From Vicinamibacterales bacterium (GTDB lineage: Bacteria > Acidobacteriota > Vicinamibacteria > Vicinamibacterales > UBA8438), in the NCBI GenBank assembly GCA_965203525.1, contig OZ241898.1, positions 1,984,176 to 2,048,175 on the forward strand: a stretch of DNA of 64,000 nt. The letters run 5' to 3'. This document shows, piece by piece, positions 4,004 to 58,440 of the stretch; within the stretch, counting starts at the first letter, position 1; every line of letters starts with the position of its first letter. The notes beneath the pieces were generated by a model. It made no database searches. It saw nothing but the letters and a program-made list of their open reading frames with translations, and had not been told where the DNA came from. The position numbers and the translations under genes are program-made.

Positions 4004-4007
<4 letters not shown>
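3795..4007 (-). CDS. CDGSH iron-sulfur domain protein
   Basis: Contains the [16 protein letters not shown] motif (C-x-C-x2-S-x3-P-x-CDGSH). Start MIMATT at 4007 overlaps the rho stop by 4 nt (ATGA). Confidence 0.8.
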
Positions 4008-5365
<1,358 letters not shown>

Positions 5366-22506: not shown

Positions 22507-25500
22507 TTACTTCCCCACGGGAAACGTCGCGTCGAGCAGCGCCGCCGCCGCCCGCCGGTCGAGCAGACTCGCGGCGAACTGGGTATCGGCCGTCAGCAGA
22601 CAGCCGTGGCATGCACGATCGCAGTCGTCGTTCCTGCAATCGAGAATCTTCCGAGCGAGTCCGGCGATTCGACCGAGCTCGTGCTGCAGGATGGTCGTGT
22701 AACCGGTGCCGGCGGACGACGCATCGAACAGGAAACCCGAGCGCGTCACCAGGTCCTCGCCGGTCCTGCTCTGCGCGGCGGCGACGCCCATCTCCCGTTC
22801 GTCCACGCCGAGCAATCGAGTCACCCCGCCGCGCAACGCCACCGCCAGTGAATAGACCGCAGCCTGCGGCGGGTTGCCGTAGATTTGCAGCTCGAAGACG
22901 TCCGTGCGGCTGGAGCAGCCCAGATTGGCGTTTCTCTTCACGGCCCACGGCTGGTCGCTCCCCTCACAGATCGATGTCCCGGTCCGTTTGCGTCCGCCGC
23001 GCAGACGCGAATGGCGGTCGCCCAGGGGATTGCCAAGTCCGAACTCCCGCTCCGGCGCTGCCCGACCGCAACGCAGACAGACGGCGTAGCCCTTCCCACC
23101 CGGGCCGCCGTTGCCGTGGAAGATGTGCCCGTCCTCCGTGTATCGGAAGCGCCCGCGGGTCGGATCCGGGAACGACACCCAGTGGCTCGTCGGGCAGCTC
23201 ACCCAGGGTTCGTTCACCGGCAGGTACGTCGCCGTCGTCACGTCGTTGTGCGGCTGGCGCTGGAAGTCCACCGCGAATCCAGCCGGCTCGATGAACACGT
23301 ACGTCTCGACGTTGTCCGCTCCGCACACGTCGCATCCTGCCTGCGAGCCCGCGCGGTCACCGGTAGCGCCACAGCGGCGGCAACGCCACGCAGAGCGGAT
23401 CGACTGGATCTCGCGGACGCCGTCCGCGTCGGCGGGCAGGCGCCAGTTGAGCGTCACGCCGTCCGACCGGTGGACGCGTCCATCGACGACCACGTCGGCG
23501 CCCGGCGCATAGTCCCGAATGGCGCCCGGCGCCTCGCGGGTGGGAAAACCAGCCCGCGGTCCGAAGGCTTCGTCCCGCGTCGGGGCTTCCCGTTCCCGCC
23601 GGCGCAAGTCCGCTTTCGACGTCGTCACGAAACTGACGATTCCGGTGGGGAAACCGTGGCCGGGCAGTACTCCTCTGCGCACCATTTCGCCCAGGAGGTA
23701 CTCGCCGCGATGACGTTCGAGCTGCCTGCTCACGGCGAGGAACGCCGGGTTCTTCACGTGGCCCGGCGCACCCTCAAACCACGCGGCGTCGGTTTTGAGG
23801 GCATCGAGTGCGTTCGTCCACTCGGTCCCGGCCTTCTCGACCGCGGCCGCCGCCTCTTGCAGCAGCTTGTCGATCTCCTCGCCGTCGAGGGCGGTGCGCG
23901 CCACGAGACGGCGGAGCCCACGGGCGACGTCCTCATCGCCGGACGCCGCCTTCAGGCACCACACCCGGAACCGGGCCGCTGGCGACTGCGCGGCGCCCTC
24001 CGACTCGAAGAACCATCCCGCTTCCAGACGATGGGCGTTGGAGCTGTCGAGGAAGCGCCCCAGCAAGAGCGCGTTGACGTGCCGCTGGACCAGCCGCCGG
24101 CTGTCGAGCCCGACGCGCGGCGGGCTGATCGAAGCATCGAACGGCCAGCGCGGGTTCTTGAAGACTTCCACGCCGTGCGGCGTGTTCCTGCAAAGCGTCA
24201 GCGCGAGGGAGCTGCCTTCGCCGCGTCGCCCGGCACGTCCCGCCCGCTGGCGGTAGTTCGCGGCGTGCGGCGGAGGATTGCTCATCATCACGGCGGCCAG
24301 ACCGCCGATGTCGATGCCCATCTCCATCGTCGTGGAACAGCTCAGGACGTTCATCGCACCGGCCTTGAACAATCCCTCCTGCTGTCTCAGACGCTGGCCG
24401 CTGATCTGCGCCGAATGCTCGCCGACCGCGAAGTACGGACTCATGGCCACCGCGCGGTCGTTCAGGTTGGACCACAGCCCCCGGGCGCGGGCGTCTCTGA
24501 CGTCAGGGTCGTCGTTCAGCCATTCGATCACGGTCGCCGTGGAGAGCGAACCGCCCTTCTCGTCCCGCCAGAACGGGTACGGCAACCGCGGCATGCGGAT
24601 CTCCTCGCAACGGTCGTCGTCGCCGTGGAGCGGCGTGTAGGGCGACCGGCCGGCGAGCGTCGTGTCGAGCATGCGCCGCGTGAAGGGACACACGCGCAGA
24701 TCCCGCGCCTCCTCCAGCACGCAGGCGTCAGCCAGGCGAAAGAGGTAGCCGTGCTCGACCTGCCGCAGATGCGGCAACACGACCGTCCATGCCGAGCGCA
24801 GACACAGCTCGACCGCATCACGGTGCACAGCGTCCTTCAGATCCAGCCCGAAGGCGCGACAGAGCACGTCCAGTACGACCGCACGGTTGCCCCCGGCGCG
24901 TGCGCGCGGCCACAACGTCTGCCCCCGCGCGAGCCGGTCCCGGAAATCCGGTCCCTGCACGTAGCTTCGGTACATCCGGGTGCCCATCCACTGGAGATAC
25001 TCTTCCGGTATGTCGGTGGCGCCCCGCGCGCGCAGCACGAAGTCGATCACGAGCTTGACGAACCTCGGCCACTCGTCCCGCGGAGCTCCGAGGGGACCGG
25101 TCCACGCCGCCGGCGTCAGGTCGGCCGCCCGCTTCTCGATATCGGGATACCGCAAAGCAACCAAACCGAGCGTCTCGGCCGAGTTCATCCGCTTGGGACG
25201 GCGGAAGAACTCGCGGAACAGGCAGAACTCCGCGTACTCCGTCGCCGGAATGTCCACACCGCTCAGGCGCCAGTACTCGGCGCGCATCCTTCCGACGTCG
25301 ATGCCGTTGGCGAGTTGCGACACGGCGTCCCGCCAGGAAAGGCGTCCCAACGGCGCGTCCAACGACTCCGCCTTCGCCGTCTCCAGGCTGTTTTTCTTCT
25401 CTTTCAGGATGGCCCGGAGGGGCGGCGAACCCGATGCGACCTTCTCCAGCTCGGCCACCTCGCCCGTGAGCCGCTGGACATCGTCCTCCGACGCGCCAGC

Positions 25501-27534
25501 GCGTCTTCGCGCCGCTGCGATGCCGTGCAGCAATTGGCTGCGTACGTAGTTTCGCTCCGATTCCTGCTGGAGCCTGACCGCCAGCCGCGCCGACCCCTGC
25601 CGGGAGTCGCTGAATGCGAGCAATCGCCGACCGCCGAACGGGACGTCGTTCGACTGCTCCGCCGGAGGCGTGTGCTCCAGCACCGTCGGGGTGACGGTCG
25701 ACAGAAGAAACGGCGCCCCCATCCGCAATGGCCAAAACAGAGAATCCCTCCTCGACTCGCGTTCGCCGCAGCGCCGACACCGCAATGGACCGGCCTCGTC
25801 TTCCGGCGCAGCGACCGAGACGCAGCCGGGCGCCGACGAGAACAAGACATCCCAAGTGTTGGCGCCCAACGCCACGCTTTCGGTGTCGACACCGATGCTC
25901 GTGATCAAGCGGCGCTCGGCGGGCTGGACCATCGGCGCTTCGTCGCTCGCTTCTCCGGCGCCGTCTTCGGTTTCCGGCGCATCGACTTCGAGCTGGAACT
26001 CATCGACCGCCGACTGCGCCGCGCGCGGCCGCAGCGTCGTCACGCCCGCATCCGGGTCGTTGCGCTCGTCAGCCGCCAGATACACCTCCCCGCAGGCGCG
26101 GCACTGCACAATCTCGTAGACCGGGTGCTCGCAGTGGCGGCAGAAGTCCCGGGGGACCGTGTGAATGGCGCCGAGCGCCCACTCGCCGCCCAGGCCCCGC
26201 GGGCAGGCCGGATTCGCGCATGCCCACAGACCGGCCTGTGTGCGGCAGAACAGGTGCCCGCGAAGCGGCAGAAAGACCTGGTCACCGCGCCGCGCCGTCG
26301 TGCACAGGTCGATCAGCCGCAGGAGCCTGTCGACCGTGGCTTCGGAACGCCACCGGCGGCGGACGTCGGAAAGCGCGGCCACGTTGTTGGGTGACGAGGC
26401 GAACAAGCCGCGGAGCCGTCTCGCCTCGCGACTAGCGACGAGACGCGAAAACCTCTCCTCGGGAGACAGCGTCCGGAGATCGTCGACGTCGAGCGGCGCC
26501 GCGTCCGTCGCCGCGGGCAGGTCCGGTACGTCCCGCGCGCCGGCGACGACGTGCACGCTCGGCGGCGGCGCGCCCGACACGTCGCACAAGAAACGGCGCA
26601 ACGCCTCGTGTTCCTTCCGACCACCGAGCGTGGCCGACGTGGCGACGAACCGCACGTCGCACGGCTCGACCCCGAACCGGTGCAGGACGCGCCGGATGAG
26701 CAGCGCCATCTCCGCGGCGCGTGAACCGATGTAGGTGTGCGCCTCGTCCAGCACGATCCAGCGCAGTGTCCCCGGCGACCCGGCGATGATCGGCGCATCG
26801 GCGTCGCGAACCAGCATGTATTCCAGCATCGTCGCGTTGGTCACGAGGACAGGTGCCGGATCCTCACGCAACGCCTGCCGCGTGCGTTGCTCCGCCGGGG
26901 ACGCATCGCGCAGTTTGTGAGCAGGCAGCGTGTCCGGCGTCTCGCCGTTGTACAGACAGAACCGGATGTCGCCGCCGAACGCCGACGACCACGCGCGCAG
27001 GCGTTCGCGCTGACTGTTGATCAGCGCGTTCAACGGGTACAGAAACAGGGCGCGCACCCCGGTGAGACGCCCGCGGTCGGTGCACTCACGGGCGAGCTGA
27101 TCGAGTATCGGCACGAGGAAGCACTCGGTCTTCCCCGACCCGGTTCCGCTCGTGACCAGTACCGACTGGGCGGGCGCTTGGCCCAGCAACCGCCAGCAGC
27201 GCAGTTGGTGTTCGTACGGGCGCCAGTCGCGGCCGAAGCGGTAGTCGGCGCAGTCCGCGGGCGGGCTGTCCATCGCTTCCACGAGCCGGGGCGTGAGCGT
27301 GCAGGCCTCGGCGAGATCGGCCATCGTTTCCCGCGCAAGGCGCCAGCCGAACGTCGCCTCGAAGATCGGGTCGGCGAGCAGCGCGCCGTCGCTGCCCGCG
27401 GGCGCCTCGAACGTGTCGATCAAGAAGCGCCGGAGCTCCGGCGACCGCACGGCCAGTTGGCTCGACAGCGCACGCGAGGAACGCTGCGAGAGATCGCGAA
27501 CGACGTCGGCAAACGAAAGCGGCTGTTCAGTCAT
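22507..27534 (-). CDS. druE: Giant SF2 DEAH-box helicase with C-terminal Cys-cluster (DUF1998/MrfA-Zn-like) region; DruE-like
   Basis: 1675 aa with Walker A VTSGTGSGKTECF, LDEAHTY, ATSATLG, GIDIGGL and QRAGRAGRRG. Multiple CxxC pairs are present, including C-terminal CLRCGR... and CDRACHGC. ATG 27534 overlaps the upstream stop by 8 nt. The family call rests on architecture and context, not on a database search. Confidence 0.6.
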   Translation of the reverse strand: MTEQPLSFADVVRDLSQRSSRALSSQLAVRSPELRRFLIDTFEAPAGSDGALLADPIFEATFGWRLARETMADLAEACTLTPRLVEAMDSPPADCADYRFGRDWRPYEHQLRCWRLLGQAPAQSVLVTSGTGSGKTECFLVPILDQLARECTDRGRLTGVRALFLYPLNALINSQRERLRAWSSAFGGDIRFCLYNGETPDTLPAHKLRDASPAEQRTRQALREDPAPVLVTNATMLEYMLVRDADAPIIAGSPGTLRWIVLDEAHTYIGSRAAEMALLIRRVLHRFGVEPCDVRFVATSATLGGRKEHEALRRFLCDVSGAPPPSVHVVAGARDVPDLPAATDAAPLDVDDLRTLSPEERFSRLVASREARRLRGLFASSPNNVAALSDVRRRWRSEATVDRLLRLIDLCTTARRGDQVFLPLRGHLFCRTQAGLWACANPACPRGLGGEWALGAIHTVPRDFCRHCEHPVYEIVQCRACGEVYLAADERNDPDAGVTTLRPRAAQSAVDEFQLEVDAPETEDGAGEASDEAPMVQPAERRLITSIGVDTESVALGANTWDVLFSSAPGCVSVAAPEDEAGPLRCRRCGERESRRDSLFWPLRMGAPFLLSTVTPTVLEHTPPAEQSNDVPFGGRRLLAFSDSRQGSARLAVRLQQESERNYVRSQLLHGIAAARRRAGASEDDVQRLTGEVAELEKVASGSPPLRAILKEKKNSLETAKAESLDAPLGRLSWRDAVSQLANGIDVGRMRAEYWRLSGVDIPATEYAEFCLFREFFRRPKRMNSAETLGLVALRYPDIEKRAADLTPAAWTGPLGAPRDEWPRFVKLVIDFVLRARGATDIPEEYLQWMGTRMYRSYVQGPDFRDRLARGQTLWPRARAGGNRAVVLDVLCRAFGLDLKDAVHRDAVELCLRSAWTVVLPHLRQVEHGYLFRLADACVLEEARDLRVCPFTRRMLDTTLAGRSPYTPLHGDDDRCEEIRMPRLPYPFWRDEKGGSLSTATVIEWLNDDPDVRDARARGLWSNLNDRAVAMSPYFAVGEHSAQISGQRLRQQEGLFKAGAMNVLSCSTTMEMGIDIGGLAAVMMSNPPPHAANYRQRAGRAGRRGEGSSLALTLCRNTPHGVEVFKNPRWPFDASISPPRVGLDSRRLVQRHVNALLLGRFLDSSNAHRLEAGWFFESEGAAQSPAARFRVWCLKAASGDEDVARGLRRLVARTALDGEEIDKLLQEAAAAVEKAGTEWTNALDALKTDAAWFEGAPGHVKNPAFLAVSRQLERHRGEYLLGEMVRRGVLPGHGFPTGIVSFVTTSKADLRRREREAPTRDEAFGPRAGFPTREAPGAIRDYAPGADVVVDGRVHRSDGVTLNWRLPADADGVREIQSIRSAWRCRRCGATGDRAGSQAGCDVCGADNVETYVFIEPAGFAVDFQRQPHNDVTTATYLPVNEPWVSCPTSHWVSFPDPTRGRFRYTEDGHIFHGNGGPGGKGYAVCLRCGRAAPEREFGLGNPLGDRHSRLRGGRKRTGTSICEGSDQPWAVKRNANLGCSSRTDVFELQIYGNPPQAAVYSLAVALRGGVTRLLGVDEREMGVAAAQSRTGEDLVTRSGFLFDASSAGTGYTTILQHELGRIAGLARKILDCRNDDCDRACHGCLLTADTQFAASLLDRRAAAALLDATFPVGK

Positions 27535-30500
27535 GGTTCGGGATGTCGAGGTCGACACCGAGGATTCGGCCGAGGCCGGCGACGTACGCGGCGTCGAACC
27601 ACTCGGGCGCGTGTGACCGGAGCAGTTTCGTCGCATGAACCAGCCGGCGCGACACGCGAGCGCCCTCCGACGCCGCGAACGCAGCACCGATCGGGGCGTC
27701 CGTGAGTGGACGCCGGAATCCAACGCGCTGGCAGTCTGCCCAGACCGCGTCCTTCCCTGGCGATTCCCGCAACAGCGCAATCTCGGCGGCCCAATCGTCC
27801 CGGTCCGGCCCGGCAGGCCAACGGAAGTCACTGCCGGCTCTCAACAAGAACTGGTACGGACCTTCGGCGCCAGACAATCCGTTGAACGCCTCGTGTAGCG
27901 GAGGGGTTGCAGACCCCTGATAGGCGATCCGGCGGCCGGAAATTGCTTCGTCAGCGAAGTACTCCAACGGGCTCAAGCCCGGACAGAAGCGCGACGCCTC
28001 CGCCGCCACTTGATGGAGCCGCTCATCAGCCCGCTGCCGCACCTCGTCCGCAGCGAAGACAGCGACCTCCTCCAGTTCGGTGCGAATCGCCCGGTGCGTG
28101 CCGGTCATTTCCTCGCGCCACACCCGAACCGGAACGAGCAGCCACGTGAACGGCAACTCGTGCTCGAGCCGCCAGATCCTCGCGCGCGCCTCTTCCCGCG
28201 GAGTCCGCAGCAGCAACCGGACCAGCGCGGCAGGGTTGCCCGACAGACAGTCCAACGCATCGAACGTCGTGGCCGGCAACCCGCGGCTCACGTCGAGAAG
28301 GTCGGCCAGGTACTCCCAGTTCTCGTCGCCGCCGCCTTCGACCATGTCTTGCAGGATCCGTCTCATGGCGGCGATTCGAGCCTCCATGTCCGGGACCGAC
28401 GAGGCGTCCGCGAGAGAACGCGCCTCCGCGGCGTCGAGCGGCGCCCGGTCGCTCGGGTCCAGGACGAAGGGGCGGGCGAAGTACTGATCGCCGGATCGCG
28501 CAAGCACGATCCGGGTCTGCTGTCGAAACGCCGACTCCGGGATCTTCCAGTCTCCCTCCGCGCCGTCGTCCCCGGCAGGTTCGAGCGGCGTCCGCCCAAG
28601 GCCGGGAGTCTCCAGACCGAACGCCTCGAAGGTCACGGGCGCGCCGTCCGGCACGCAACGAACCGGGACCGAACAGATCGACGCGTCGGAAACCTTGACG
28701 TCGCACGCGAATCTGCGTACGACTGTTCGCTCTTCGGCGAAACCGCCAGAAGTCAGTTCGAGATGGATCCGGGCATCGAGCCGCTTCGTGGCTGCGAACA
28801 GCGATTCGAGCGCATCGTGGACCAGGACCAGCGGTAACTCCGAAACGCCGTCGCCGATCTTCGGCAGTGCGATGTCGAAGTGGGCCGCGGCCTGCATCCG
28901 CTCATCGAGATCGCTGGCGCGCAACTCCCCGACGAGGCGAAAGGTGTCGCTCGCCTGCGGCGAAATCGCCAGCGCCCGCCACCCGTACAGCGATTCCACC
29001 GACAGCGCACGACGGCGGTCGGCATCCTCGTGTTCCGGGTGTACGAACCGGGCGCCGCGGCCTGGAAACGGCACGGTCACGGGCAGGGTCGATCCGTTCG
29101 GCCAACGCGTCACCAATTCCACGTGTGAAGGCGGGCCCGTCCGCCTGCCCGTCCGCCCGTCTCCTGCGACGGCGACGCGGTCCGGTGCGAAGCGCACGGT
29201 GACGCGCAGGTGATCGGCCTGCCTCTCGCTTTCGACGTCGACGTGCGGGTGTTCGCAGGCGATGTCGAGTGACGCGCCTCTGATATCCACGAAACCGCGA
29301 GTCGGTTCCCGTCCTGGTACGACCTTCGCGCCGAAGTCCGCGCCCGCCAGGCAGATCTTCGACAGGAACACGGTCTCGCCATCAACCTCTCGCCGGACCC
29401 GCCATACCCCTGGGCTGTCGAGATTCCGAAACCATCCATCACCGCGCTCCGCGCGCCAGGAGACCTGGGCGGCAGGAACCCGACGCCACGCTCCGTCGGG
29501 CTCGATGGAAGACAGTGACGGCTGGTCGTGGTAGACGGGCGCCGGCGCCTCGAAATCGAAACAGCGCTTGCCAGTGAGACGATGCTCGAACTGTCTCTCC
29601 TGCTCCTGCGCCGTTCGTATCCTGCAGGTTCCGGCTGGCGTATCGATCCTGACGTCCCCTTCGACGTCGAACATCACGCGGCCGGTGATCGGCTGCGTCT
29701 CCCAACGGCGGCAGTCGGGATGCCGGAGAAGCACCGGAGCCGTCTCGTCGCGGCACGCAACCGCGACGCGCCGGAAGCGGGTGCGGACCGAGCCTTCGGC
29801 GTAGAGATCGAGCCGGACCTCGTCGTCGTCCGTAGCGGCGAACACCCAGGGCAGCTCGTCGGCAGGCGCCGCGCCTCCCCGAGGCGCGAAGCTGTCCCCG
29901 GTCCGGCGTCCGGCCTGGAGGAACCAGCGGATCTCCCGGTCGGCGACGGCCGCCAGATCCCCGGGCTCGGCAAGCACGCCGGAGAACACGACCTCGTCAC
30001 CTGCGACCCGCCCGTTGGCTATCGGCGTGGGGCGGTTCCCATCGACGCGCAGTTGGAATCGATTGGGCAGGTCCCCCTGCTCGATACCGATCAGCCGCGC
30101 TACGCCCGCCGCGGGCATGCGTCGCGGCACACGCGGCTCGACGACGAACCTCCGGCCGGCAGCCGCGTCGGTGATGTAGCGGAGCACCTGGAACTCTCCG
30201 GCCTCCGTGCTCTCCCCCGCGGCGGCGTCGCGCAGCAGCGAATCGATCAATCTTCGCGCCTGCCCGTCCTCGATGTCGATCGGCATCCGCGACCGCCATT
30301 CGGGAGTCTGCCTGTCCAGGACCGCAACCGGATCGTCCTGCGATCCGACGTCCCGCAGCTCCCAGATCTGATCCATGACCTCGGCACAGAGGCGGTAGAC
30401 CGGCTCCTGGCGCAGCGAGCGCGGCAGGTGCGAGCGGAGTGGTTCCGCGAGTTCGTAGCCATCCTCGACCACTCGGCGGAAAAGGCGGTACTCTCGCAGC

Positions 30501-30940
30501 AGCGCCCGCAGAAAACGGCGCACGTTCGAGTGCTGGCTCGATACCAAACGCAGCGGAAGTCCGCCCTGACAGGCGCAGGTGCCGAGGTAGCGGACGCTCG
30601 CACCGAAAACAACGGGTCTGACACGCCACCAGCGCCAAGCGTTCCGCAGTGGCTCGTAGAGTGCCGGGAACGGCGCCTCGCAACGGATGGAGTCGAGCAA
30701 CGGCTGCCATGCCCAGGAACCGCCGTCGTAGTGCCGCCGCCACCACTCGGCGGCATAGACGGCGAAGACTCGGCCGCCCGCGCCGGGATCACGCTGGGGG
30801 TGCCACCCGGCAAGCACGTCACGCGCCTCCTCGAAGCGTTCGGTCGAACACCGGTACGCATAGAGGGGCCGCGCGTCGGGATCGGAGAGTCCGACGGCCC
30901 CCAACAGACTCGACAACCACGCACGGGGTGTGACGGTCAT
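27527..30940 (-). CDS. Large (1137 aa) protein with no recognisable motifs, translationally coupled to the helicase; DruH-like candidate
   Basis: ATG 30940 is preceded by GGGGAGGAAC, and the ORF is uninterrupted to 27527. The CDS call is solid. The DruH assignment is by position and size only. Confidence 0.45.
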   Translation of the reverse strand: MTVTPRAWLSSLLGAVGLSDPDARPLYAYRCSTERFEEARDVLAGWHPQRDPGAGGRVFAVYAAEWWRRHYDGGSWAWQPLLDSIRCEAPFPALYEPLRNAWRWWRVRPVVFGASVRYLGTCACQGGLPLRLVSSQHSNVRRFLRALLREYRLFRRVVEDGYELAEPLRSHLPRSLRQEPVYRLCAEVMDQIWELRDVGSQDDPVAVLDRQTPEWRSRMPIDIEDGQARRLIDSLLRDAAAGESTEAGEFQVLRYITDAAAGRRFVVEPRVPRRMPAAGVARLIGIEQGDLPNRFQLRVDGNRPTPIANGRVAGDEVVFSGVLAEPGDLAAVADREIRWFLQAGRRTGDSFAPRGGAAPADELPWVFAATDDDEVRLDLYAEGSVRTRFRRVAVACRDETAPVLLRHPDCRRWETQPITGRVMFDVEGDVRIDTPAGTCRIRTAQEQERQFEHRLTGKRCFDFEAPAPVYHDQPSLSSIEPDGAWRRVPAAQVSWRAERGDGWFRNLDSPGVWRVRREVDGETVFLSKICLAGADFGAKVVPGREPTRGFVDIRGASLDIACEHPHVDVESERQADHLRVTVRFAPDRVAVAGDGRTGRRTGPPSHVELVTRWPNGSTLPVTVPFPGRGARFVHPEHEDADRRRALSVESLYGWRALAISPQASDTFRLVGELRASDLDERMQAAAHFDIALPKIGDGVSELPLVLVHDALESLFAATKRLDARIHLELTSGGFAEERTVVRRFACDVKVSDASICSVPVRCVPDGAPVTFEAFGLETPGLGRTPLEPAGDDGAEGDWKIPESAFRQQTRIVLARSGDQYFARPFVLDPSDRAPLDAAEARSLADASSVPDMEARIAAMRRILQDMVEGGGDENWEYLADLLDVSRGLPATTFDALDCLSGNPAALVRLLLRTPREEARARIWRLEHELPFTWLLVPVRVWREEMTGTHRAIRTELEEVAVFAADEVRQRADERLHQVAAEASRFCPGLSPLEYFADEAISGRRIAYQGSATPPLHEAFNGLSGAEGPYQFLLRAGSDFRWPAGPDRDDWAAEIALLRESPGKDAVWADCQRVGFRRPLTDAPIGAAFAASEGARVSRRLVHATKLLRSHAPEWFDAAYVAGLGRILGVDLDIPNHD

Positions 30941-31151
30941 GTTCCTCCCCGAAACGCGCAGTGCGGGCCTTCTCGCGGCCAATCACGCGGCCTGAGTCGC
31001 GTCCCTCCGACGGCGTCGCCCGGTGACGTCAAGGATACCGTCCACGTCAAGTTTCCGGCCTGGTATCCTGGTCCGGTCGATAGCCGGCGGCCATCGGGCC
31101 ATCCGGGCATCGTCGGTCGCTGCCCGCACCAGGGATGAGAGGCATGCGCAG

Positions 31152-31442: not shown

Positions 31443-33833
31443 ATGACGAGCACGGGTGGCCGCGCCCGGGGCCTCCTCCGCCGGACGCTTGGACGGCAGC
31501 CCGCGGTGTCGCTGGCGACCACGGCGGCGCTGATCGCCGGAATCGGCGTCGCAGCGGCGGTTGCCGGCTTTCTCGACTCGTTGAACACACCGCCGCGCTG
31601 GACGGCGCGCGTGCCGGACCCGAACATGCTGGTTCGTGTGTCGCCGGTGCGGAACTACGGGTCGTACACGGCGATCGGCCCGCGCCTCCGAACCCTCGAC
31701 GTCGCCGTGTACCGGCGCGTCACGGCCGGCACCGGCCGCGGGCCCTTCGCGGCGCCGCTGCAACTGGAGTGCGTCAGCCCGGCATACCTGGCGCTGCTCG
31801 GCGTGCGGCCGTTCGCCGGGCGGGACTTCGATGCCCGGGACGACGTCGAGGGCGGGCCGCCGACCGTGGTGCTGGCGCATCACTTCTGGATGCGTCGGTT
31901 CGGGGGCGATCCCGCCGTGCTCGGCACCATGATGCAGGTCGACGATCGGCTGCACACGATCATCGGCGTCGGCCCCCCGGACTTCGGAGGCGTGAACTCG
32001 CCGCCGGCCGACGCGTGGACGCTGTTGGCGGCCTCTCCGAATTTCTGCGACGCGTCGGGGCGGCCGATCCTCGACCAGGGCGCGTGGCTGCAAACCGTCG
32101 GCCGCGTGCGGCCGGGATTCACGGTGGCGCACGCCGACGCCGAGGTGGCGGCGCTGTTCGCGGCCGACGCGGAGTCGGCGCGGAGGCTCGGCCGCGGAGT
32201 CGTGGAGCCGTTGTACGGCAGGCGCGCCGCCCACGGGTCGCCCGCGGGGCGGGTCGGCCGGTTCCTGGCCGCGGGTGTCGTGTTCATGCTGCTGGCGGTG
32301 TGCGTGAACGTCTCGCTGGTGCGCTCGCTGCACGTGGCGGACTGCCGGGACGCCCTCGCCGTTCGACGTCTACTCGGGGCGACGCGTCTGCGCCTGGGCT
32401 GGGTGCTGTGGGTCGAAACGCTGCTTCTGGCCGCCGCGTGCGTGCCGCCGGCGGCGATCGTCGCGCTGTGGACCGCGTGGACGCTGGAGGCGTTCTTCCC
32501 GATCGGATCCGTGGAGGCGGTACTGAGCCCGAGGGGCCTTGCGGCGCTGACGGCCATCGCACTGGCCGTCGGAGGCCTCGGCGGCGCGGCCCCGGCCGTG
32601 GCCGGCGCCCGTACGGCGTTGCGGTCCGCCTGGGGAACAAGCATGCCGGCCGGGACGCGGCCGTCGCTCGGCCGCGATGCGCTGCTGGTGAGCCAAGTGG
32701 CGGTAGCCCTGGTCCTGATCATGGTGGCGCAGCTCTTCGTGCGCAGCACGTCCGAGATCCGGCGGGGACTCGGTTTCGACCTCGACGGCGTCGCCGTGCT
32801 CACCGCCGACCTCGAACGCGCCGGATTCGGGAGCGCGGACAGGCTGTCCACGTTCCACCTCCTGGCGGAGCGGGTGGTCCGCCTCCCGCACGTCGAGGCG
32901 GCGGCGATCGCGTCGCAATCGCTGCTGGATCCTGACGACTCGCACCTGATGCTGGGAGTGACGGCGCCGGGCTCGTTCGGAAGCGTCGTCATGTCGACGT
33001 TCAACGCGGTGTCACCGCCCTACTTCGACGTGGTCGGCACCCGCCTCGTGCGGGGGCGGGCGTTCACCCGGGAGGATGCGGCCGGCAGCCGGCCCGTGAT
33101 GATCGTCAGCGACAGTCTGGCCCGACGCCTCTGGCCGGGCCGCGACGCGACCGGCCTCTGTGCGTTCGTCGGTAACGCGGGCTGCGTGGACGTCGTCGGC
33201 GTCAGCGAGTCCCGCCGGCCTGGAGCGGTGCGGTACCACGAGGAAGAGTTCTTCGTGCCCCTGGCGCAAGCGTCCCGCTACGGATATGGACGTGGATACG
33301 CCCGCGCGCTCTTCGTTCGCCCGAAGGATGCCGGGGACGAGAGCCTGGCCGCCATCGCCGCCGCCGTTCGCGGCGCGGTTCCCGATCTGCCGTTCGTGTC
33401 AGTGGCGCGTCTGTCCGACAGGGCCGACGCCGAGATGCGCTCCTGGCGCCTCGGGATCCGCATGTTCGGTCTGTTCGGAGGCGTCGCCGTGCTGCTGGCC
33501 GGCATCGGGGTCTACGGATCGCTGGCAGGCGCCGTGCGCCGGCGCACACCGGAAATCGCCGTCCGGATGGCGCTCGGCGCCCGGCCCGCGGACATCGTGC
33601 GATTGATGCTGCGCCGCAACGCGATGGTGCTCGCGGCGGGCATGGCGCTCGGCGGCGCCGCGCTTCTCGTCGTCGCTCCGCTGCTGCGTGCGCGGCTGTT
33701 CGGCGTGGTCCCGACCGACGGACCGTCGCTTGCCGCCGCCTGCGGCGCGGTCGCCGTCAGCGTATCGCTGGCGGTCGCCGCCCCGATCGCGCGGGCGGTG
33801 CGCGTGGATCCGATGGCGGCGCTTCGACGTTGA
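31443..33833 (+). CDS. ADOP-family duplicated ABC-type permease (MacB/FtsX-like, two FtsX domains)
   Basis: 796 aa with an N-terminal TM, a large periplasmic domain and an FtsX 4-TM bundle, twice. The C-terminal ...VRVDPMAALRR is typical of the FtsX/MacB family. No ATPase gene is adjacent. Confidence 0.8.
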   Translation: MTSTGGRARGLLRRTLGRQPAVSLATTAALIAGIGVAAAVAGFLDSLNTPPRWTARVPDPNMLVRVSPVRNYGSYTAIGPRLRTLDVAVYRRVTAGTGRGPFAAPLQLECVSPAYLALLGVRPFAGRDFDARDDVEGGPPTVVLAHHFWMRRFGGDPAVLGTMMQVDDRLHTIIGVGPPDFGGVNSPPADAWTLLAASPNFCDASGRPILDQGAWLQTVGRVRPGFTVAHADAEVAALFAADAESARRLGRGVVEPLYGRRAAHGSPAGRVGRFLAAGVVFMLLAVCVNVSLVRSLHVADCRDALAVRRLLGATRLRLGWVLWVETLLLAAACVPPAAIVALWTAWTLEAFFPIGSVEAVLSPRGLAALTAIALAVGGLGGAAPAVAGARTALRSAWGTSMPAGTRPSLGRDALLVSQVAVALVLIMVAQLFVRSTSEIRRGLGFDLDGVAVLTADLERAGFGSADRLSTFHLLAERVVRLPHVEAAAIASQSLLDPDDSHLMLGVTAPGSFGSVVMSTFNAVSPPYFDVVGTRLVRGRAFTREDAAGSRPVMIVSDSLARRLWPGRDATGLCAFVGNAGCVDVVGVSESRRPGAVRYHEEEFFVPLAQASRYGYGRGYARALFVRPKDAGDESLAAIAAAVRGAVPDLPFVSVARLSDRADAEMRSWRLGIRMFGLFGGVAVLLAGIGVYGSLAGAVRRRTPEIAVRMALGARPADIVRLMLRRNAMVLAAGMALGGAALLVVAPLLRARLFGVVPTDGPSLAAACGAVAVSVSLAVAAPIARAVRVDPMAALRR

Positions 33834-52462: not shown

Positions 52463-52497
52463 AAAAAAGCCTCTCCAACCCGGCGGCTGAAGAGGCT
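52463..52497 (-). terminator. Intrinsic terminator (13-bp stem, GCCG loop, T6), candidate attenuator of the aro/trp operon
   Basis: Minus strand: AGCCTCTTCAGCC gccg GGTTGGAGAGGCT TTTTT (11 Watson-Crick plus 2 G-U pairs). It ends 42 nt before the aroDE ATG. Confidence 0.65.
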
Positions 52498-52697: not shown

Positions 52698-54051
52698 TCA
52701 TGCAGCAGGGGTCGGCGTCCGGCGAGGTCCGCGCGCGCACGTGTCCGGGCGCAGCCGCAGGTGTTCGAGGATCGCCTCGGCGGCCCACTGGTGGCCGGCG
52801 GGGGTCCAATGAACGTCGTGCCGCCAGTGCGCGTCCCGGACCCGTCCGCCCCGGCGCACGATGTGGTCGTACAGACTGACGACCGGAATCCGGAGCTCGC
52901 CGGCGATGGCGCGCAGCCTGTCGAACAACGGCTCTCCCGGCCGCAGATGGTGGGTGGCCAGGATGACCAGCGACGCGCCGTCCCGGTCCGCGCGGCGCCG
53001 GAACTGGTCCAGGGCGAAGGCCGTGTACTCCAGTTCCGCCGCGTACGGCGGCGGCAATCGCTCGGCCGCGAACAACTCGTGCAGATGGAAGCGCACCCCC
53101 ACCAGCCCCGCGCGTCGCGCGATCGCGTCGAGCAACGGCTCGTCGGGATGCTTCTTCCGCAGCACGCCCGCCCAGGCGAACATCTGCGGCGTGACTCCCA
53201 GCGGCGTCCGCGCGCGCGCCTGGGCGTCCAGCCACCCCCCGAGGTACGACCACCGAGCCGCGCGCCGCGTCACGGCATGTACGTACCGCATGGACCGCAT
53301 GCTCCCGAGCGGATGCCAGAATTCCAGGTCGCCGCGGCGGCGGCGGAGCGAGTCGCCGTCCTCGTAGTCCGGGTTCGGCGGACGCAGGCGCAACGCGCCG
53401 TCGGCGGCCCGCTCGGCCGTCATCACCGGCAGACGATCCGGATCGCGAAGGGTCTGCAGCGCGGTCAGGAGCGGTGAATTTTCAAAGTAGTCGTTCGAGT
53501 GGAAGACGAGCACGATCAGCCCGGGCACCCGCTCGCGGGCGAACTCGTCGTACCAGGCCAGTTGGTTGATCTGGCCGGTGCCGCCTCGTCCGAACGCGGA
53601 CGTCGTGACGTGCAGGCCGCCCGGCCGCCGCGCTGCGAGGGCCTCCAGCCGCACGTGCAGCTTGTCGGCGACCGGCACCTGTCTCGCCGCCACGAAGGAG
53701 TCGCCGATCACCGAGACGTGGCAGTCGGCCGCGGCGGGCTCCGCGCGCGGAGGTTCGCGGTCGAGGAATCCCTGGCTGTTGAATCGGGAAATCTGCCAGT
53801 AGTCGAGCCGGTTCGTGTCCCGCACCTCCGCGCCCGGCTTGCCGACGAGCCCGACGCCGGGAACGAATGCGCGGGGGAACGCTCGAGGTCATGAACGGCA
53901 CGGTGCTCCGCAACCAGAGCTCTCCCGCCGCCGCGAGCAGCATCAGGCCGGCGGCGAGCAGCGCCGCGTTCCAGCCCGCCACGCGCAACGCCCGGCGGAC
54001 GCGGCGTCCCCCCCCCCCCCCCGGAGGGGAGCCGTCCTGCCTCTTGCACAT
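52698..54051 (-). pseudogene. SGNH/AlgX-like hydrolase paralog 1, frameshifted (one extra G/C at 53873-53877)
   Basis: The N-terminal 58 codons (MCKRQDGSPPGGGGGRRVRRALRVAGWNAALLAAGL...FMTSSVP, from ATG 54051) are in one frame. The body (from ...TNRLDYWQISRFN, 53825 down to 52698) is in another. The other four copies have gcgcgggga where this one has gcgcggggga. Confidence 0.7.
54008..54022. repeat. Homopolymeric tract C15 (G15 on the coding strand) in the 5' coding region of paralog 1
   Basis: Counted directly: 15 consecutive C at 54008-54022. It encodes PGGGGG between ATG 54051 and the TM anchor. Confidence 0.95.
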
Positions 54052-55481
54052 TACCGCTCCGCGCGCGCGACGCCGAACCGCCCCGCCGCGTCCGACCCGC
54101 GGAACCCGCTCATCGCACCCGGCCTGCCGTCCGCCGGAGACACCTGTAGCAGGCGGCCCGCGGAGCCGCCCGCACCTCGTGCAGCAGGGGTCGTCCGGCG
54201 AGGGCCGCGCGCGCACGTGTCCGGGTGCCGCCGCAGATGTTCGAGGATCGCCTCGGCGGCCCACTCGTGGCCGGCGGGGGTCCAATGAACGTCGTGCCGC
54301 CAGTGCGCGTTCCGGACCCGTCCGCCCCGGCGCACGATGTGGTCGTACTGACTGACGACCGGAATCCGGAGCTCGCCGGCGATGGCGCGCAGCCTGTCGA
54401 ACAACGGCTCTCCCGGCCGCAGATGGTGGGTGGCCAGGATGACCAGCGACGCGCCGTCCCGGTCCGCGCGGCGCCGGAACTGGTCCAGGGCGAAGGCCGT
54501 GTACTCCAGTTCCGCCGCGTACGGCGGCGGCAATCGCTCGGCCGCGAACAGATCTCGCATATGGCGCACGCCCGCCGGCCACTCGCGTCGCGCGATCGCG
54601 TCGAGCAGCGGCTCGTCGGGATGCTTCTTCCGCAGCACGTCCGCCCAGGCGGACATCTGCGGCGTGATTCCCACCTCGGTTTTCACCCCGGACAACCAGG
54701 TGTCCAGCCACCGCGTCGCGTGCGTCTGGGCGTTCAGCCACATCCCGAAGTACGTCCGCCGCGCCGCGCGCCGCACGGCACGCACGTACCGCGTGATCCG
54801 GGGCATGTGCCGGAATTCCAGGTCGCCGCGGCAGCGGCGGAGCGAGCCGCCGCACTCGTAGTCCGGGTTCGGCGGACGCAGGCGCAACGCGCCGTCCGCG
54901 GCCCGCTCGGCCGTCATCACCGGCAGACGATCCGGATCGAGAAAGGCTCTCAGCGCGATCAGGAGCCTTGAATTGTCAAAGTAATCATTCCGGACGAAAA
55001 CCAGCACGATCAGCCTGGGGCGCCGCTCGCGGGCGAACTCGTCGTACCAGGCCAGTTGGTTGATCTGGCCGGTGCCGCCTAGTCCGAACGCGGACGTGGT
55101 GACGTGCAGGCTGCCCGGCCGCCGCGCCGCGAGGACCTCCAGCCGCACGTGCAGCTTGTCGGCGATCGGCACCTGTCTCGCCTCCACGAAGGAGTCGCCG
55201 ATCACCGTGACGTGGCAGGCATCCGCGGCGGGCTCGGCGCGCGGAGGTTCGCGGTCGAGGAATCCCTCGCGGTTGAATCGGGAAACCTGCCAGAAGTCGA
55301 GCCGGTTCGTGGCCTGCACCTCCGCGCCCGGCCTGCCGAGGAGCCCGACGCCGGGAACGAATGCGCGGGGAACGTTCGAGGTCATGAACGGTACGGTGCT
55401 CCGCAACCGGATCTCGCCCGCCACGGCGAGCAGCGCCAGGCCGGCGGCGAGCAGCACCGCGTTCCAGCCCGCCACGCGCAA
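54051..55481 (-). CDS. SGNH/AlgX-like hydrolase paralog 2 (membrane-anchored)
   Basis: TM anchor WNAVLLAAGLALLAVAG and SGNH blocks VIGDSFV, AFGLGGTG, LVFVRNDY, and RHDVHWTPAGH (DxHW-T-x-x-G, AlgX/AlgJ-like). As sequenced, only a TTG at 55481 starts the frame. The RBS-preceded ATG at 55551 is out of frame by 1 nt across the G15 tract. Confidence 0.75.
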   Translation of the reverse strand: MRVAGWNAVLLAAGLALLAVAGEIRLRSTVPFMTSNVPRAFVPGVGLLGRPGAEVQATNRLDFWQVSRFNREGFLDREPPRAEPAADACHVTVIGDSFVEARQVPIADKLHVRLEVLAARRPGSLHVTTSAFGLGGTGQINQLAWYDEFARERRPRLIVLVFVRNDYFDNSRLLIALRAFLDPDRLPVMTAERAADGALRLRPPNPDYECGGSLRRCRGDLEFRHMPRITRYVRAVRRAARRTYFGMWLNAQTHATRWLDTWLSGVKTEVGITPQMSAWADVLRKKHPDEPLLDAIARREWPAGVRHMRDLFAAERLPPPYAAELEYTAFALDQFRRRADRDGASLVILATHHLRPGEPLFDRLRAIAGELRIPVVSQYDHIVRRGGRVRNAHWRHDVHWTPAGHEWAAEAILEHLRRHPDTCARGPRRTTPAARGAGGSAGRLLQVSPADGRPGAMSGFRGSDAAGRFGVARAER

Positions 55482-55499
55482 CGCCCGGCGGACGCGGCG

Positions 55500-55514
55500 C
55501 CCCCCCCCCCCCCC
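55500..55514. repeat. Homopolymeric tract C15 (G15 on the coding strand) between ATG 55551 and the body of paralog 2
   Basis: Counted directly: 15 consecutive C at 55500-55514. A 14-nt or 17-nt tract would put ATG 55551 in frame. Confidence 0.95.
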
Positions 55515-55559
55515 GGAGGGAAGCCGTCGAAGCCGTCCTGCCTCTTGCCATCCGTATCC

Positions 55560-57050
55560 TCACCGCTCCGCGCCCGCGACGCCGAACCGCCCCGCCGCGG
55601 CCGGCCCGCGGAACCCGCTCATCGCACCCGGCCTGCCGTCCGCCGGAGACACCTGTAGCAGGCGGCCCCCGGAGCCGCCCGCACCTCGTGCAGCAGGGGT
55701 CGTCCGGCGAGGGCCGCGCGCGCACGTGTCCGGGTGCCGTCGCAGGTGTTCGAGGATCGCCTCGGCGGCCCACTGGTGGCCGGCGGGGGTCCAGTGATCG
55801 TCGTGCCGCCAGTGCGCGTCCCGGACCCGTCCGCCCCGGCGCACGACGTGGTCGTACAGACTGACGACCGGAATCCGGAGCTCGTCGGTGATGGCGCGCA
55901 GCCTGTCGAACAACGGCTCTCCCGGCCGCAGATGGTGGGTGGCCAGGATGACCAGCGACGCGCCGTCCCGGTCCGCGCGGCGCCGGAACTGGTCCAGGGC
56001 GAAGGCCGTGTACTCCAGTTCCGCCGCGTACGGCGGCGGCAATCGCTCGGCCGCGAACAACTCGTGCAGATGGAAGCGCACCCCCACCAGCCCCGCGCGT
56101 CGCGCGATCGCGTCGAGCAACGGCTCGTCGGGATGCTTCTTCCGCAGCACGCCCGCCCAGGCGAACATCTGCGGCGTGATTCCCAGCGGTGCCAGACTGC
56201 GCGCCTGGGCGTTCAGCCACTCCCCGAGGTACGACCACCGAGCCGCGCGCCCCGTCACGGCATGTGCGTACCGCATGGACCGCATGCTCCCGAGCGGATG
56301 CCAGAATTCCAGGTCGCCGCGGCGGCGGCGGAGCGAGCCGCGATCCTCGTAGTCCGGGTTCGGCGGACGCAGGCGCAACGCGCCGTCGGCGGCCCGCTCG
56401 GCCGTCATCATCGGCAGCCGATCCGGATCGCGAAGGGTCCGTAGCGCGGTCAGGAGCGGTGAATTGTTCATGTAGTCGTTCTGGACGAAGACGAGCACGA
56501 TCAGCCCGGGCGCCCGCTTGCGGGCGAACTCGTCGTAGTAGGCCAATTGAGCGAGCTGGCCGGTGCCGCCTCGTCCGAACGCGGACGTCGTCATGTTCAG
56601 GCTGCCCAGCCGCCGCGCCGCGAGGACCTCCAGCCGCACGTGCAGCTTGTCGGCGATCGGCACTTGTACCGCTTCCACGAAGGAGTCGCCGATCACCGTG
56701 ACGTGGCAGCCGGTCGCGGCGGGCTCCGTGCGCGGAGGTTCGCGGTCGAGGAATCCCTCGCGGTTGAATCGGGAAACCTGCCAGAAGTCGAGCCGGTTCG
56801 TGGCCTGCACCTCCGCGCCCGGCCTGCCGAGGAGCCCGACGCCGGGAACGAATGCGCGGGGAGCGCTCGCGGTCATGAACGGCACGGTGCTCCGCAACCG
56901 GAGCTCTCCCGCCACGGCGAGCAACGCCAAGCCGGCGGCGATCAGCGCCGCGTTCCAGCCCGCCACGCGCAACGCCCGGCGGACGCGGCGGCGACGACCG
57001 CGCGGCGCACGCACCGGGTGTCGGACGTCCCGGTCACCCATCCGCCGCAT
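55560..57050 (-). CDS. SGNH/AlgX-like hydrolase paralog 3
   Basis: 496 aa starting MRRMGDRDV...RRRRVRRALRVAGWNAALIAAGLALL, with the same SGNH blocks. There is no homopolymer; RGRRRR replaces the G-tract. Confidence 0.85.
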   Translation of the reverse strand: MRRMGDRDVRHPVRAPRGRRRRVRRALRVAGWNAALIAAGLALLAVAGELRLRSTVPFMTASAPRAFVPGVGLLGRPGAEVQATNRLDFWQVSRFNREGFLDREPPRTEPAATGCHVTVIGDSFVEAVQVPIADKLHVRLEVLAARRLGSLNMTTSAFGRGGTGQLAQLAYYDEFARKRAPGLIVLVFVQNDYMNNSPLLTALRTLRDPDRLPMMTAERAADGALRLRPPNPDYEDRGSLRRRRGDLEFWHPLGSMRSMRYAHAVTGRAARWSYLGEWLNAQARSLAPLGITPQMFAWAGVLRKKHPDEPLLDAIARRAGLVGVRFHLHELFAAERLPPPYAAELEYTAFALDQFRRRADRDGASLVILATHHLRPGEPLFDRLRAITDELRIPVVSLYDHVVRRGGRVRDAHWRHDDHWTPAGHQWAAEAILEHLRRHPDTCARGPRRTTPAARGAGGSGGRLLQVSPADGRPGAMSGFRGPAAAGRFGVAGAER

Positions 57051-58440
57051 GCTCCGGAACGGCGGCCACTCCGGTTGCCGCCTCTCGTGAAGCAGGGGGC
57101 GGCGGCCGGCGAGGGCCGCGCGCGCACACGTCCGGGCACCGCCGCAGATGTTCGAGGATCGCCTCGGCGGCCCACTCGTGGCCGGCGGGGGTCCAGTGCG
57201 GGTCGTGCCGCCAGTGCGCGTCCCGGACTCGTCCGCCCCGGCGCGCGATGTGGTCGTACTGACTGACGACCGGAATCCGGAGCTTGCCGGCGATGGCGCG
57301 CAGCCTGTCGAACGACGGCTCTCCCGGCCGCAGATGGTGGATGGCCAGAATGACCAGCGACGCGCCGTCCCGGTCCGCGCGGCGCCGGAACTGGTCCAGG
57401 GCGAAGGCCGTGTATTCCAGTTCGGCCGCGTACGGCGGCGGCAGCGGATCGGCCGCGAACAGATCGTTCAAAAAGCGCGTTCCCGCCGGCCACTCGCGTC
57501 GCGCGAACGCGCCGAGCAACGGCTCGTCGGGATGCTTCTTCCGCAGCACGTCCGCCCAGGCGAGCCTGTCCGGCGTGGCTTCCGGCGGCGTCAGCACGTC
57601 CGCATGGGCGTCCAGCCACCCCCCGAGGTACGACCACCGAGCCGCGCGCCTCGTCGTGGCACGCACGTACCGCATGAAGCTGGGAGGGTACCAGGCTCCC
57701 AGGTCGCCGCGGCGGCGACGGATCGACTCTTGGTCCTCGTACTCAGGGTTCGGCGGACGCAGGCGCAACGCGCCGTCCGCGGCCCGCTCGGCCGTCATCA
57801 CCGGCAGACGATTCGGGTCGCGAAGGGAACTCAGCGCGATCAGGAGCCTTGAATTTTCAAAGTAATCATTCCGGGCGAAGACCAGCACGATCAGTCCGGG
57901 CGCCCGCTTGCGGGCGAACTCGTCATAGTAGGCCAGTTGATTGATCTGGCCGGTGCCGCCTCGTCCGAACGCGGACGTCGTGACGTGCAGGCCGCCCGGC
58001 CGCCGCGCCGCGAGGACCTCCAGCCGCACGTGCAGCTTGTCGGCGAGCGGCACTTCCCGCGCTTCCACGAAGGAGTCGCCGATCACCGTGACGTGGCAGG
58101 CGTCCGCGGCGGGCTCGGCGCGCGGAGGTTCGCGGTCGAGGAATCCCTGGCGGTTGAATCGGGAAACCTGCCAGAAGTCGAGCCGGTTCGTGGCCCGCAC
58201 CTCCGCGCCCGGCCTGCCGAGGATCCCGACGCCGGGAACGAATGCGCGGGGAATGCTCGAGGTCATGAACGGTACGGCGCTCCGCAACCAGAGCTCTCCC
58301 GCCGCCGCGAGCAGCGCCAGGCCGGCGGCGGTCAGCGCCGCGTTCCAGCCCGCCACGCGCAACGCCCGGCGGACGCGGCGGCGACGGCCGCGCGGCGCAC
58401 GTGCCGGGCGGCGGACATCCCCGTCACCCATCCGCCGCAT
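57034..58440 (-). CDS. SGNH/AlgX-like hydrolase paralog 4
   Basis: 468 aa. The stop overlaps the paralog 3 start by 17 nt. It has the same blocks (VIGDSFV, AFGRGGTG, VFARNDY, RHDPHWTPAGH). Confidence 0.85.
   Translation of the reverse strand: MRRMGDGDVRRPARAPRGRRRRVRRALRVAGWNAALTAAGLALLAAAGELWLRSAVPFMTSSIPRAFVPGVGILGRPGAEVRATNRLDFWQVSRFNRQGFLDREPPRAEPAADACHVTVIGDSFVEAREVPLADKLHVRLEVLAARRPGGLHVTTSAFGRGGTGQINQLAYYDEFARKRAPGLIVLVFARNDYFENSRLLIALSSLRDPNRLPVMTAERAADGALRLRPPNPEYEDQESIRRRRGDLGAWYPPSFMRYVRATTRRAARWSYLGGWLDAHADVLTPPEATPDRLAWADVLRKKHPDEPLLGAFARREWPAGTRFLNDLFAADPLPPPYAAELEYTAFALDQFRRRADRDGASLVILAIHHLRPGEPSFDRLRAIAGKLRIPVVSQYDHIARRGGRVRDAHWRHDPHWTPAGHEWAAEAILEHLRRCPDVCARGPRRPPPPASREAATGVAAVPEHAADG

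Follow-up and report, generated by a model that had tools for sequence, protein, structure and literature searches.

A tandem array of five genes in a 64,000-nucleotide stretch of DNA from a Vicinamibacterales bacterium (contig OZ241898.1, positions 1,984,176 to 2,048,175; hereafter the window, in which all positions are counted unless a relative is named) encodes putative enzymes of SGNH fold, and two of these genes carry a run of 15 guanines in their 5' leader. We propose, at about even chances, that such poly-G tracts are slipped-strand contingency switches acting on the translation of the tract-type paralogs. The tracts would be hypermutable homopolymers in a translated 5' leader, and their host array would consist of fast-evolving, tandem, membrane-anchored enzymes. 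Replication slippage would alter the tract length; lengths that do not differ from the in-frame length by a multiple of three would cut the start codon off from the anchor and the catalytic domain (OFF), and the right length would reconnect a start codon preceded by a Shine-Dalgarno (SD) sequence with the basic cluster, the anchor and the catalytic domain (ON). Different cells would then express different subsets of the diversified paralogs.

The paralogs, numbered here from P5, the first gene of the array, to P1, lie head to tail on the minus strand at 52698–59794 in units of about 1.4–1.5 kb, and all features of the array are given for that strand. The G15 tracts are located at 55500–55514 in P2 and at 54008–54022 in P1, where the plus strand reads C15. 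P5 has a G7 tract at 59703–59709, while P3 and P4 have no tract and encode RGRRRR instead. Each G15 tract is situated between an SD-preceded ATG and the conserved RRVRRALRVAGWN membrane anchor, 29–37 nt past the ATG and 6–7 nt ahead of the basic cluster and anchor. All other homopolymers in the window, which has a GC content of 72.4%, are at most 7 nt long; besides the G7 of P5, 7-nt runs occur at 5326, 18213 and 20021. Run counts in the window drop approximately 4.7-fold with each additional base, and when this trend is extrapolated, the expected number is about 1.6e-5 for runs of 15 and 0.04 for runs of at least 10. The window contains 12 matches to G10, a number that was reached in none of 100 dinucleotide-preserving shuffles. 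Both G15 tracts are long enough to fall into the hypermutable class of repeats (G/C homopolymers of about 8 or more), and the computed frames indicate that tract length sets the reading frame from the upstream start to the anchor.

The translation initiation region of P2 (55549–55561) includes a GAGGA at 55561–55557, which overlaps the TGA stop codon of P3 (55562–55560), a spacer of 5 nt, and the ATG at 55551–55549. The corresponding region of P1 (54049–54060) includes a GGAG at 54060–54057, a spacer of the same length, and the ATG at 54051–54049, which overlaps the TAA of P2 (TAATG). Translation of P1 from ATG 54051 gives MCKRQDGSPPGGGGGRRVRRALRVAGWN, in the frame of the anchor. From ATG 55551, P2 reads MARGRTASTASLRGGGGAPRPP..., one nucleotide out of the frame of the anchor and enzyme, a shift that G14 or G17 would correct; in the family frame, P2 reads ...GGGGGRRVRRALRVAGWN, and the out-of-frame product is an Arg-rich polypeptide of 188 residues with no early stop. 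Since both tracts comprise 15 nt, the difference in frame between P1 and P2 does not derive from tract length. It stems from an ATG(T)GC indel, and a 9-nt insertion carried by the P2 leader is frame-neutral. In P5, the G7 tract is in frame with GTG 59758 and GTG 59794 but not with the SD-preceded GTG at 59736, whose frame ends after 25 codons. A G8 in P5 would put both ATGATG (59790) and the SD-preceded GTG 59736 in frame. In these respects the initial annotation of this DNA was accurate: its coordinates for the two C15 runs are exact, the G7 of P5 and the tract-free leaders of P3 and P4 are as it described, the two ATGs follow GGAG and GAGGA as it stated, and its translations of P1 (in frame) and P2 (one nucleotide out, restored by 14 or 17 G) match ours, as does its proposal that G8 would bring ATGATG 59790 of P5 into frame.

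The P1 leader opens with ATGTG (54049–54051), in which an ATG and a GTG two nucleotides downstream (54049) occupy two frames behind one SD sequence. The same ATGTGC is present in the related locus L001 (11479–11483), where the GTG is the start in phase with a G10 tract. Because ATG and GTG lie in different frames behind a single SD, two of the three tract lengths could in principle be ON at this type of leader. In the window as in its relatives, a canonical SD sequence (GGAG, GAGGA or AAGGA) precedes the upstream ATG or GTG at a distance of 4–5 nt; the ATGGCAAGAGG start of L002, for example, has AAGGA ahead of it. The first in-frame starts in the P2 body after the tract are TTG 55481 and GTG 55475, and no SD-like sequence was found before these internal TTG/GTG codons. 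Relatives with short or interrupted Gly codons are in frame from the ATG (MRKQDGSLSGGRRVRR, MRKQDGSLPGGDGRGDGRRVRR, MRKQNGSPPRGHGRRVRR), and the basic cluster (K/R)LRRALRLAGWN is kept as protein in homologues of 45–54% identity. By these indications the leader upstream of the anchor is translated. Copies differ in which of the three frames of this leader DNA they use (MCKRQDGSPP, MARGRTAPS and MQETGRIPS), and thus what selection maintains is apparently the link from start to anchor and not the leader peptide. Immediately after the tract, a 33-nt motif, GTCCGCCGGGCGTTGCGCGTGGCGGGCTGGAAC (55461–55493 in P2), encodes VRRALRVAGWN, i.e., the basic cluster and the beginning of the membrane anchor. 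All five paralogs share exactly this motif, synonymous sites included (starting at 59701, 58374, 56984, 55493 and 54000), and most relatives have it in identical or nearly identical form, while the genes overall are only about 85–90% identical. This identity may reflect gene conversion or a function at the nucleotide level.

Eight close loci were obtained via homologue look-ups. Two of them, L001 (a contig of 5.19 Mb) and L054, are conspecific with the window, as judged from synonymous divergence (dS) of 0.02–0.04 in the genes for the S55 peptidase, aroDE and trpE. At the homologous leader site, L001 carries tracts of G6 and G10, L002 carries G16, G19 and G7, and the L053 orthologues of P2 and P1 carry G18 and G19, respectively; the P5 orthologues of L054 and L056 each have G7, the same length as in the window. 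L057 and L058, which represent one locus in two samples, have G12 and G8, respectively, and L058 has a second site with G10. All runs of 8 or longer in L001, L002, L053, L057 and L058 occur at this same leader site. The alignment of L053, the closest strain, with 59476–52758 of the window has 98.7% identity over 6.7 kb, with 3 gap openings and 9 gap columns; these gaps are confined to the two tracts, which hold 8 of the 9 columns, and to a C4/C5 run. L056 aligns over 3.8 kb with no gap at all, its G7 included. Tract length is therefore polymorphic among strains with conserved flanks (G18/G19 in L053 vs G15/G15 in the window). A comparison of lengths among strains had been suggested in the initial annotation as a check, and the range found at the one site, G6 to G19, favours a switch.

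The frame state of the copies differs with the presence of a tract. Tract-less copies are without exception in frame with an ATG located 51–66 nt upstream (18/18), while among the ten copies whose tract has at least eight G, three keep an SD-preceded start in frame (Fisher p = 1e-4), a proportion that fits a random one third. The N-termini within species-level protein clusters alternate between full-length and MAGWNA-type truncated calls; for example, in the P0032 cluster, which has 12 members, ten are close to full length, and four of these have been called with a truncated N-terminus. The L057/L058 site (3120–3146 and 333–359, respectively) represents a second genomic context, after a Cyclase-family gene. 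Its leader has an extended pyrimidine stretch, TCCTCCTCC(C/CCC)TCCTCC, ahead of the G12 or G8, and the two samples differ in C-run and G-run alike, with both out of frame.

Homopolymers were also found at this position in distant homologues. A homologue with 50% identity in L059 (70% GC) starts with ATGCT-C26-GAAGG (MLPPPPPPPPRR; C26 at 4006–4031), and its tandem neighbour has no tract. L060, a circular contig of 4.97 Mb with 42x coverage and 67% GC, has four tandem paralogs adjoining a Peptidase_S55 gene, as in the window. The first of these is cut by the end of the retrieved locus, and the leader site is occupied by C6 (453–458), an interrupted CCCCACACACACA, and C14 (3018–3031). The poly-C homologues of other lineages share 47–50% identity with the window family. 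Because a homopolymer of either base recurs in distinct lineages, accident or sequencing error is hard to invoke, and the pattern argues for recurrent evolution of G/C homopolymers at the same leader position. Exact-motif scans (19-mer and 24-mer) of genome and metagenome contigs returned chance matches only, with no SGNH homologue nearby, and tblastn against plasmids gave a single remote match in Desulfolutivibrio.

Within the array, two types of 5' end can be distinguished. In the tract-less type, represented by P4 (57034–58440) and P3 (55560–57050), the ATG is located within the last 17 nt of the upstream gene, i.e., P5 and P4, respectively, and the N-terminus reads MRRMGDRDVR...RGRRRR, that of P3 beginning M(RRM). 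Each tract-type gene begins with an SD sequence and start codon of its own, which are followed by a short leader and a G-run. These are P5 (58424–59794, the longest open reading frame (ORF) in the G7 frame), P2 (body at 54051–55499, the family frame running from just past the tract to the TAA at 54053–54051) and P1 (body at 52698–54007). Relatives have a non-coding spacer of about 100 nt ahead of tract-type genes, which in the window has been absorbed by read-through. A hairpin with a T-run resembling an intrinsic terminator (52468–52497), the sole one in the region, follows directly after the array. A scan of the array for consensus sigma-70 promoters found no site, leaving separate promoters for the tract-type genes unsupported. 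The array was defined by alignment; Tandem Repeats Finder did not report a 1.4–1.5 kb array because its maximum period is 500. The source annotation gives P1 as an N-terminally truncated product of 375 residues (ORF 53825–52698; P0019), shortens P2 to 468 residues (MLLAAGL...), and begins P5 at a GTG inside the anchor motif (419 residues, MAGWNA...; P0125).

The product of these genes has a basic cluster and one long N-terminal helix (residues 14–52) followed by an SGNH-fold domain in the AF2 model (predicted local distance difference test (pLDDT) 86; predicted template modelling score (pTM) 0.83). Foldseek assigned a probability of 1.00 to SGNH structures including CgnD, LAE5, TesA, acetyl-xylan esterases, PatB (E = 1.7e-3) and DltD, and no solved structure exceeds 12% sequence identity. 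The family as a whole numbers 982 hits. Across 58 homologues, residues G118, D119, S120, N188, D189, H416, W417 and H422 do not vary, and D414 hardly does. The GDS nucleophile, block III Asn, block V Asp/His and overall fold that typify SGNH/GDSL enzymes are all present, and the motifs GDSF and RDAHWRHDxHWTPAGH are kept in 28 array copies, those of tract type included. Pfam gave weak matches to the AlgX and GDSL families. The PDB sequence search returned AlgX only (E = 0.97), and AlgX is not among the top 50 fold matches listed. Most of the variability falls within a helical insert of about 120 residues (residues ~215–330) and a few loops. The array is a hypervariable island within the species: genes are mosaic and copy number varies among L001, L002 and L053, with five complete copies in the window, four and a remnant in L001, and seven and a partial eighth in L002. 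Nonsynonymous divergence (dN) is 0.04–0.14 in array genes and 0.002–0.012 in flanking genes, a difference of 5–40-fold. The fold resembles carbohydrate esterases, PatB and DltD as well as TesA; together with the N-terminal anchor it may point to a role in surface modification, and the label of surface-modification genes in the initial annotation is no more than an inference from these two features.

Several observations weigh against a contingency switch. Both alleles of the L057/L058 locus and both tract copies of L053 are OFF. The G7 of P5, which the initial annotation had noted at the equivalent place, is out of frame with its SD-preceded start at the same length in three samples, and appears fixed in that state and not switching. 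P1 carries a C5 run at 53873–53877, 130 nt downstream of its in-frame tract, which the initial annotation had overlooked; the L053 orthologue and each of the four other paralogs have C4 at this place. The resulting +1 frameshift takes the frame of ATG 54051 out of the family frame after 58 residues and to a stop at 53482, and P1 is not ON as assembled because this lesion breaks it at any tract length. The additional C may be a genuine mutation that has made P1 a pseudogene, or else an error in the length of the homopolymer. P2 and P3 extend about 41 codons beyond the usual C-terminus of the family (54054–54179 and 55563–55688, respectively; in P2, the last 41 codons, 54176–54054) as the result of the loss of two stop codons, with CGA and CAG at the positions where the P1 3' flank and relatives have TGA and TAG (ctgctaTAG). 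The dN/dS of the array is 0.6–1.45, both between paralogs and between conspecific strains, as compared with 0.08–0.43 for the flanking S55 peptidase, aroDE and trpE (window vs L001 and L054). The resemblance to AlgX (PF16822) is borderline (26.9 and 28.8 bits vs a cut-off of 26.5) and limited to profile positions 75–163 of 268. Finally, lengths of 15–19-nt homopolymers in a long-read consensus are unreliable, so that ON/OFF calls are possibly off by one base or more, and L053 has a coverage of only 4.9x. As assembled, P3 and P4 would be constitutively readable, P2 would be OFF, and P1 would be ON at its tract and broken downstream. The contingency-locus reading of the initial annotation is thus supported in part: it retains the placement of the tracts, their length polymorphism, the frame statistics and the recurrence in other lineages, and loses P1, which is broken downstream, and the fixed G7 of P5.

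The alternative that best survives, although we regard it as unlikely, is non-adaptive. Under it, the paralogs are redundant, decaying duplicates, a run of Gly codons in a dispensable leader grew by slippage, and the frameshifts represent pseudogenisation. Such decay would account for the additional, non-tract frameshift of P1 and for the passage of P2 and P3 through two lost stops into tails that have a coding signal near zero and are modelled as disordered (pLDDT <50), yet no copy of 400 codons or more other than P1 has an internal frameshift or stop. It would equally account for a dN/dS of about 0.8–1.4 among paralogs and for the difference in copy number between strains, but the catalytic motifs are intact in 28 of 28 copies and variability is confined to the insert. 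That most long-tract copies, and the fixed P5, are out of frame is also in line with decay; on the other hand, the SD sequences and start codons upstream of the tract are conserved, and homopolymers of the other base (C14, C26) occupy the same leader position in distant lineages. The frameshift of P1, the lost stops and the high dN/dS all also fit relaxed constraint, and the pattern of the array is consistent with either diversifying selection accompanied by gene conversion or such relaxed constraint.

A second alternative, which we consider quite improbable, locates the effect of the tract at the RNA level. Translation would always begin at TTG 55481 or GTG 55475, and the G-run, as part of a 5' untranslated region, would tune expression gradually by way of RNA structure, a G-quadruplex, or a mixing of frames caused by slippage during transcription, and would not provide a heritable ON/OFF state. 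Fifteen G is the minimum for a three-tetrad G-quadruplex with 1-nt loops; the poly-C versions of the tract found elsewhere, however, cannot make G-quadruplexes in the mRNA. Homopolymers that exceed the 8–9 base pairs of the RNA-DNA hybrid can in principle permit slippage of RNA polymerase, with A/T runs being the usual motif. Gene callers begin many tract-type genes at the internal GTG (MAGWNA...), and within the 33-nt motif that surrounds the internal starts the paralogs do not differ even at synonymous sites; nevertheless, the internal TTG/GTG codons have no SD, the upstream starts have GGAG, GAGGA or AAGGA at 4–5 nt, homologues of about 50% identity preserve the protein sequence of the basic cluster encoded ahead of those internal codons, and tract-less paralogs always hold their upstream ATG in frame. 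In predicted folds, the G-run pairs with the pyrimidine stretch CTCCCCTCC that lies ahead of it. The folds of the three leaders are nevertheless no stabler than shuffled sequences (z = -0.75 to -1.8), and for that reason a dedicated RNA switch was discarded as the principal explanation. Scans of the window with Rfam and for tRNA gave no match, and the repeated segment between paralogs is not a known RNA.

Slightly less probable still is that the tracts are real and their lengths are consensus errors, in which case the ON/OFF pattern would be devoid of biological information and the true tract might be a poly-Gly linker of constant, in-frame length. The contig names of L001, L002, L053, L059 and L060 (ctgN_coverage_l/c) resemble those of long-read metagenome assemblies, but scaffold-type assemblies with 100-N gaps, probably short-read, also show such tracts (G12, G8 and G10), with lengths that differ by sample; the platform of each assembly was deduced solely from contig names and N-gaps. 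The low coverage of L053, the restriction of all three window-L053 indels to homopolymers, and the identical length of exactly 15 in both window tracts are suggestive of such errors, yet the lengths observed (6, 7, 8, 10, 12, 15, 16, 18 and 19) do not proceed in steps of three. Large genes of the window match their profiles end to end (ClpB, positions 1–852 of 853; Rho, 2–415 of 415; RNase J, 1–546 of 546), and ORF lengths over about 10 kb of flanking genes are identical among the window, L001 and L054; the general rate of indel error is therefore low. The alignment of L056 is likewise free of gaps. A pure assembly artefact was rejected as an explanation of the existence of the tracts, which are carried by independent assemblies of two naming styles; the rejection does not extend to their exact lengths. 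A chance origin of the G15 tracts is ruled out by the run-length statistics of the window.

Should the tracts act as contingency switches, changes of length would probably be frequent and reversible within a population, and OFF alleles would be expected to yield no functional enzyme, although initiation at the internal TTG/GTG might yet produce a shortened protein. The enzymes would presumably act on a polymer of the cell surface. Switching of individual paralogs independently of one another, as proposed in the initial annotation, is doubtful, because P4 and P3 overlap the genes upstream of them by 17 nt, the ATG of P1 lies in the stop codon of P2, and the array has a single terminator; OFF states may depress the overlapping or closely abutting paralogs downstream by polarity. 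More speculatively, and on balance somewhat unlikely in our judgement, the repeated G/C switches in this tandem, fast-diversifying, S55-adjacent SGNH family might together form a combinatorial 'phasome' that varies cell-envelope modification, e.g., against phages. Its setting would be uncultured, high-GC, free-living soil bacteria, with the overlapping or abutting downstream paralogs included among the genes affected.

Slipped-strand phase variation has been described mostly in host-associated pathogens. The mechanism itself is already known, and its setting in a soil lineage is under-explored. Soil and ocean bacteria are listed as unexplored in a 2025 review of phase variation (PMC11868660), and our literature search found no description of such tracts in this SGNH family or in comparable soil lineages. 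If the proposed switch is correct, bet-hedging by contingency loci operates in soil communities, and a new enzyme family is flagged as a probable target of fluctuating selection, for which pressure of phages or predators on the envelope is an obvious guess. The N-terminally truncated calls in the source genome (375, 419 and 468 residues) would in that case be artefacts of tract state, which would serve as a warning to annotators.

Two further features of the window were identified by profile searches. A pair of genes at 22507–30982 on the minus strand resembles the type III Druantia anti-phage system. DruE (1774 residues) matches PADLOC DruE3 with 1868 bits, and DruH (1151 residues) matches the NCBIfam YjiT/STY4851 family with 494 bits and PADLOC DruH3 with 234 bits. 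An ADOP-family duplicated permease is encoded at 31443–33833 (TIGR03434, 462 bits, under the 622-bit cut-off); the known distribution of this family would hint at a lineage like the Acidobacteriota.

Several known systems can be compared with the array. Enrichment of simple sequence repeats at N-termini has been reported as a genome-wide signature of phase variation, a trend seen mainly in pathogens (PMC3315296). The likeness lies in the extreme 5' placement, at which a frameshift abolishes the whole protein; here, one family has the repeat at one leader position across lineages. With the SGNH/GDSL superfamily (TesA, acetyl-xylan esterases, PatB, DltD and AlgX/AlgJ) the window family shares the GDS nucleophile block, and with AlgX/AlgJ/DHHW proteins the D-x-H-W motif. 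It differs from the superfamily in its hypervariable helical insert of about 120 residues, its single N-terminal transmembrane helix, and a neighbourhood with no polysaccharide genes. Mycobacterium tuberculosis, in which homopolymer frameshifts underlie phase variation of glpK (a 7C tract) and of ESX-1-associated tracts (10.1101/717272, PMC11898584), provides a precedent for reversible homopolymer frameshifting in a high-GC genome. That organism is a pathogen, however, and its tracts of about 7 nt lie within metabolic or secretion genes, with neither an array of paralogs nor placement in an N-terminal leader.

The closest parallels are found in Neisseria and Campylobacter, in both of which switching has been established experimentally, together with its phenotype in the latter; in the window family it is proposed from sequence comparison. 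In Neisseria gonorrhoeae pgtA, as in other poly-G phase-variable genes of Neisseria (PMC2193922, PMC5084427, PMC5953494), a poly-G tract within the ORF of a glycan-modifying enzyme sets the frame, and the tract is long in some strains and short and stable in others, comparable here to G15–19 on the one hand and G6/G7 or interrupted GGDGRGDG leaders on the other. Those genes are single, encode a glycosyltransferase and belong to a host-restricted pathogen, whereas the genes described here form a tandem array and encode an SGNH fold. In Campylobacter jejuni, poly-G/C contingency loci are present in genes for modification of the capsule and lipooligosaccharide (PMC8437040, PMC8355987). The resemblance extends to intragenic G/C homopolymers in genes for surface-modifying enzymes, to several related genes each with a tract, such that states combine, and to lengths that vary by strain. 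Campylobacter is a low-GC, host-associated organism with tracts of about G8–G13, in contrast to the 72% GC, soil-type lineage and lengths of up to 19 (26 in a homologue) of the window family, in which the tract is moreover placed in a non-conserved N-terminal leader before the membrane anchor.

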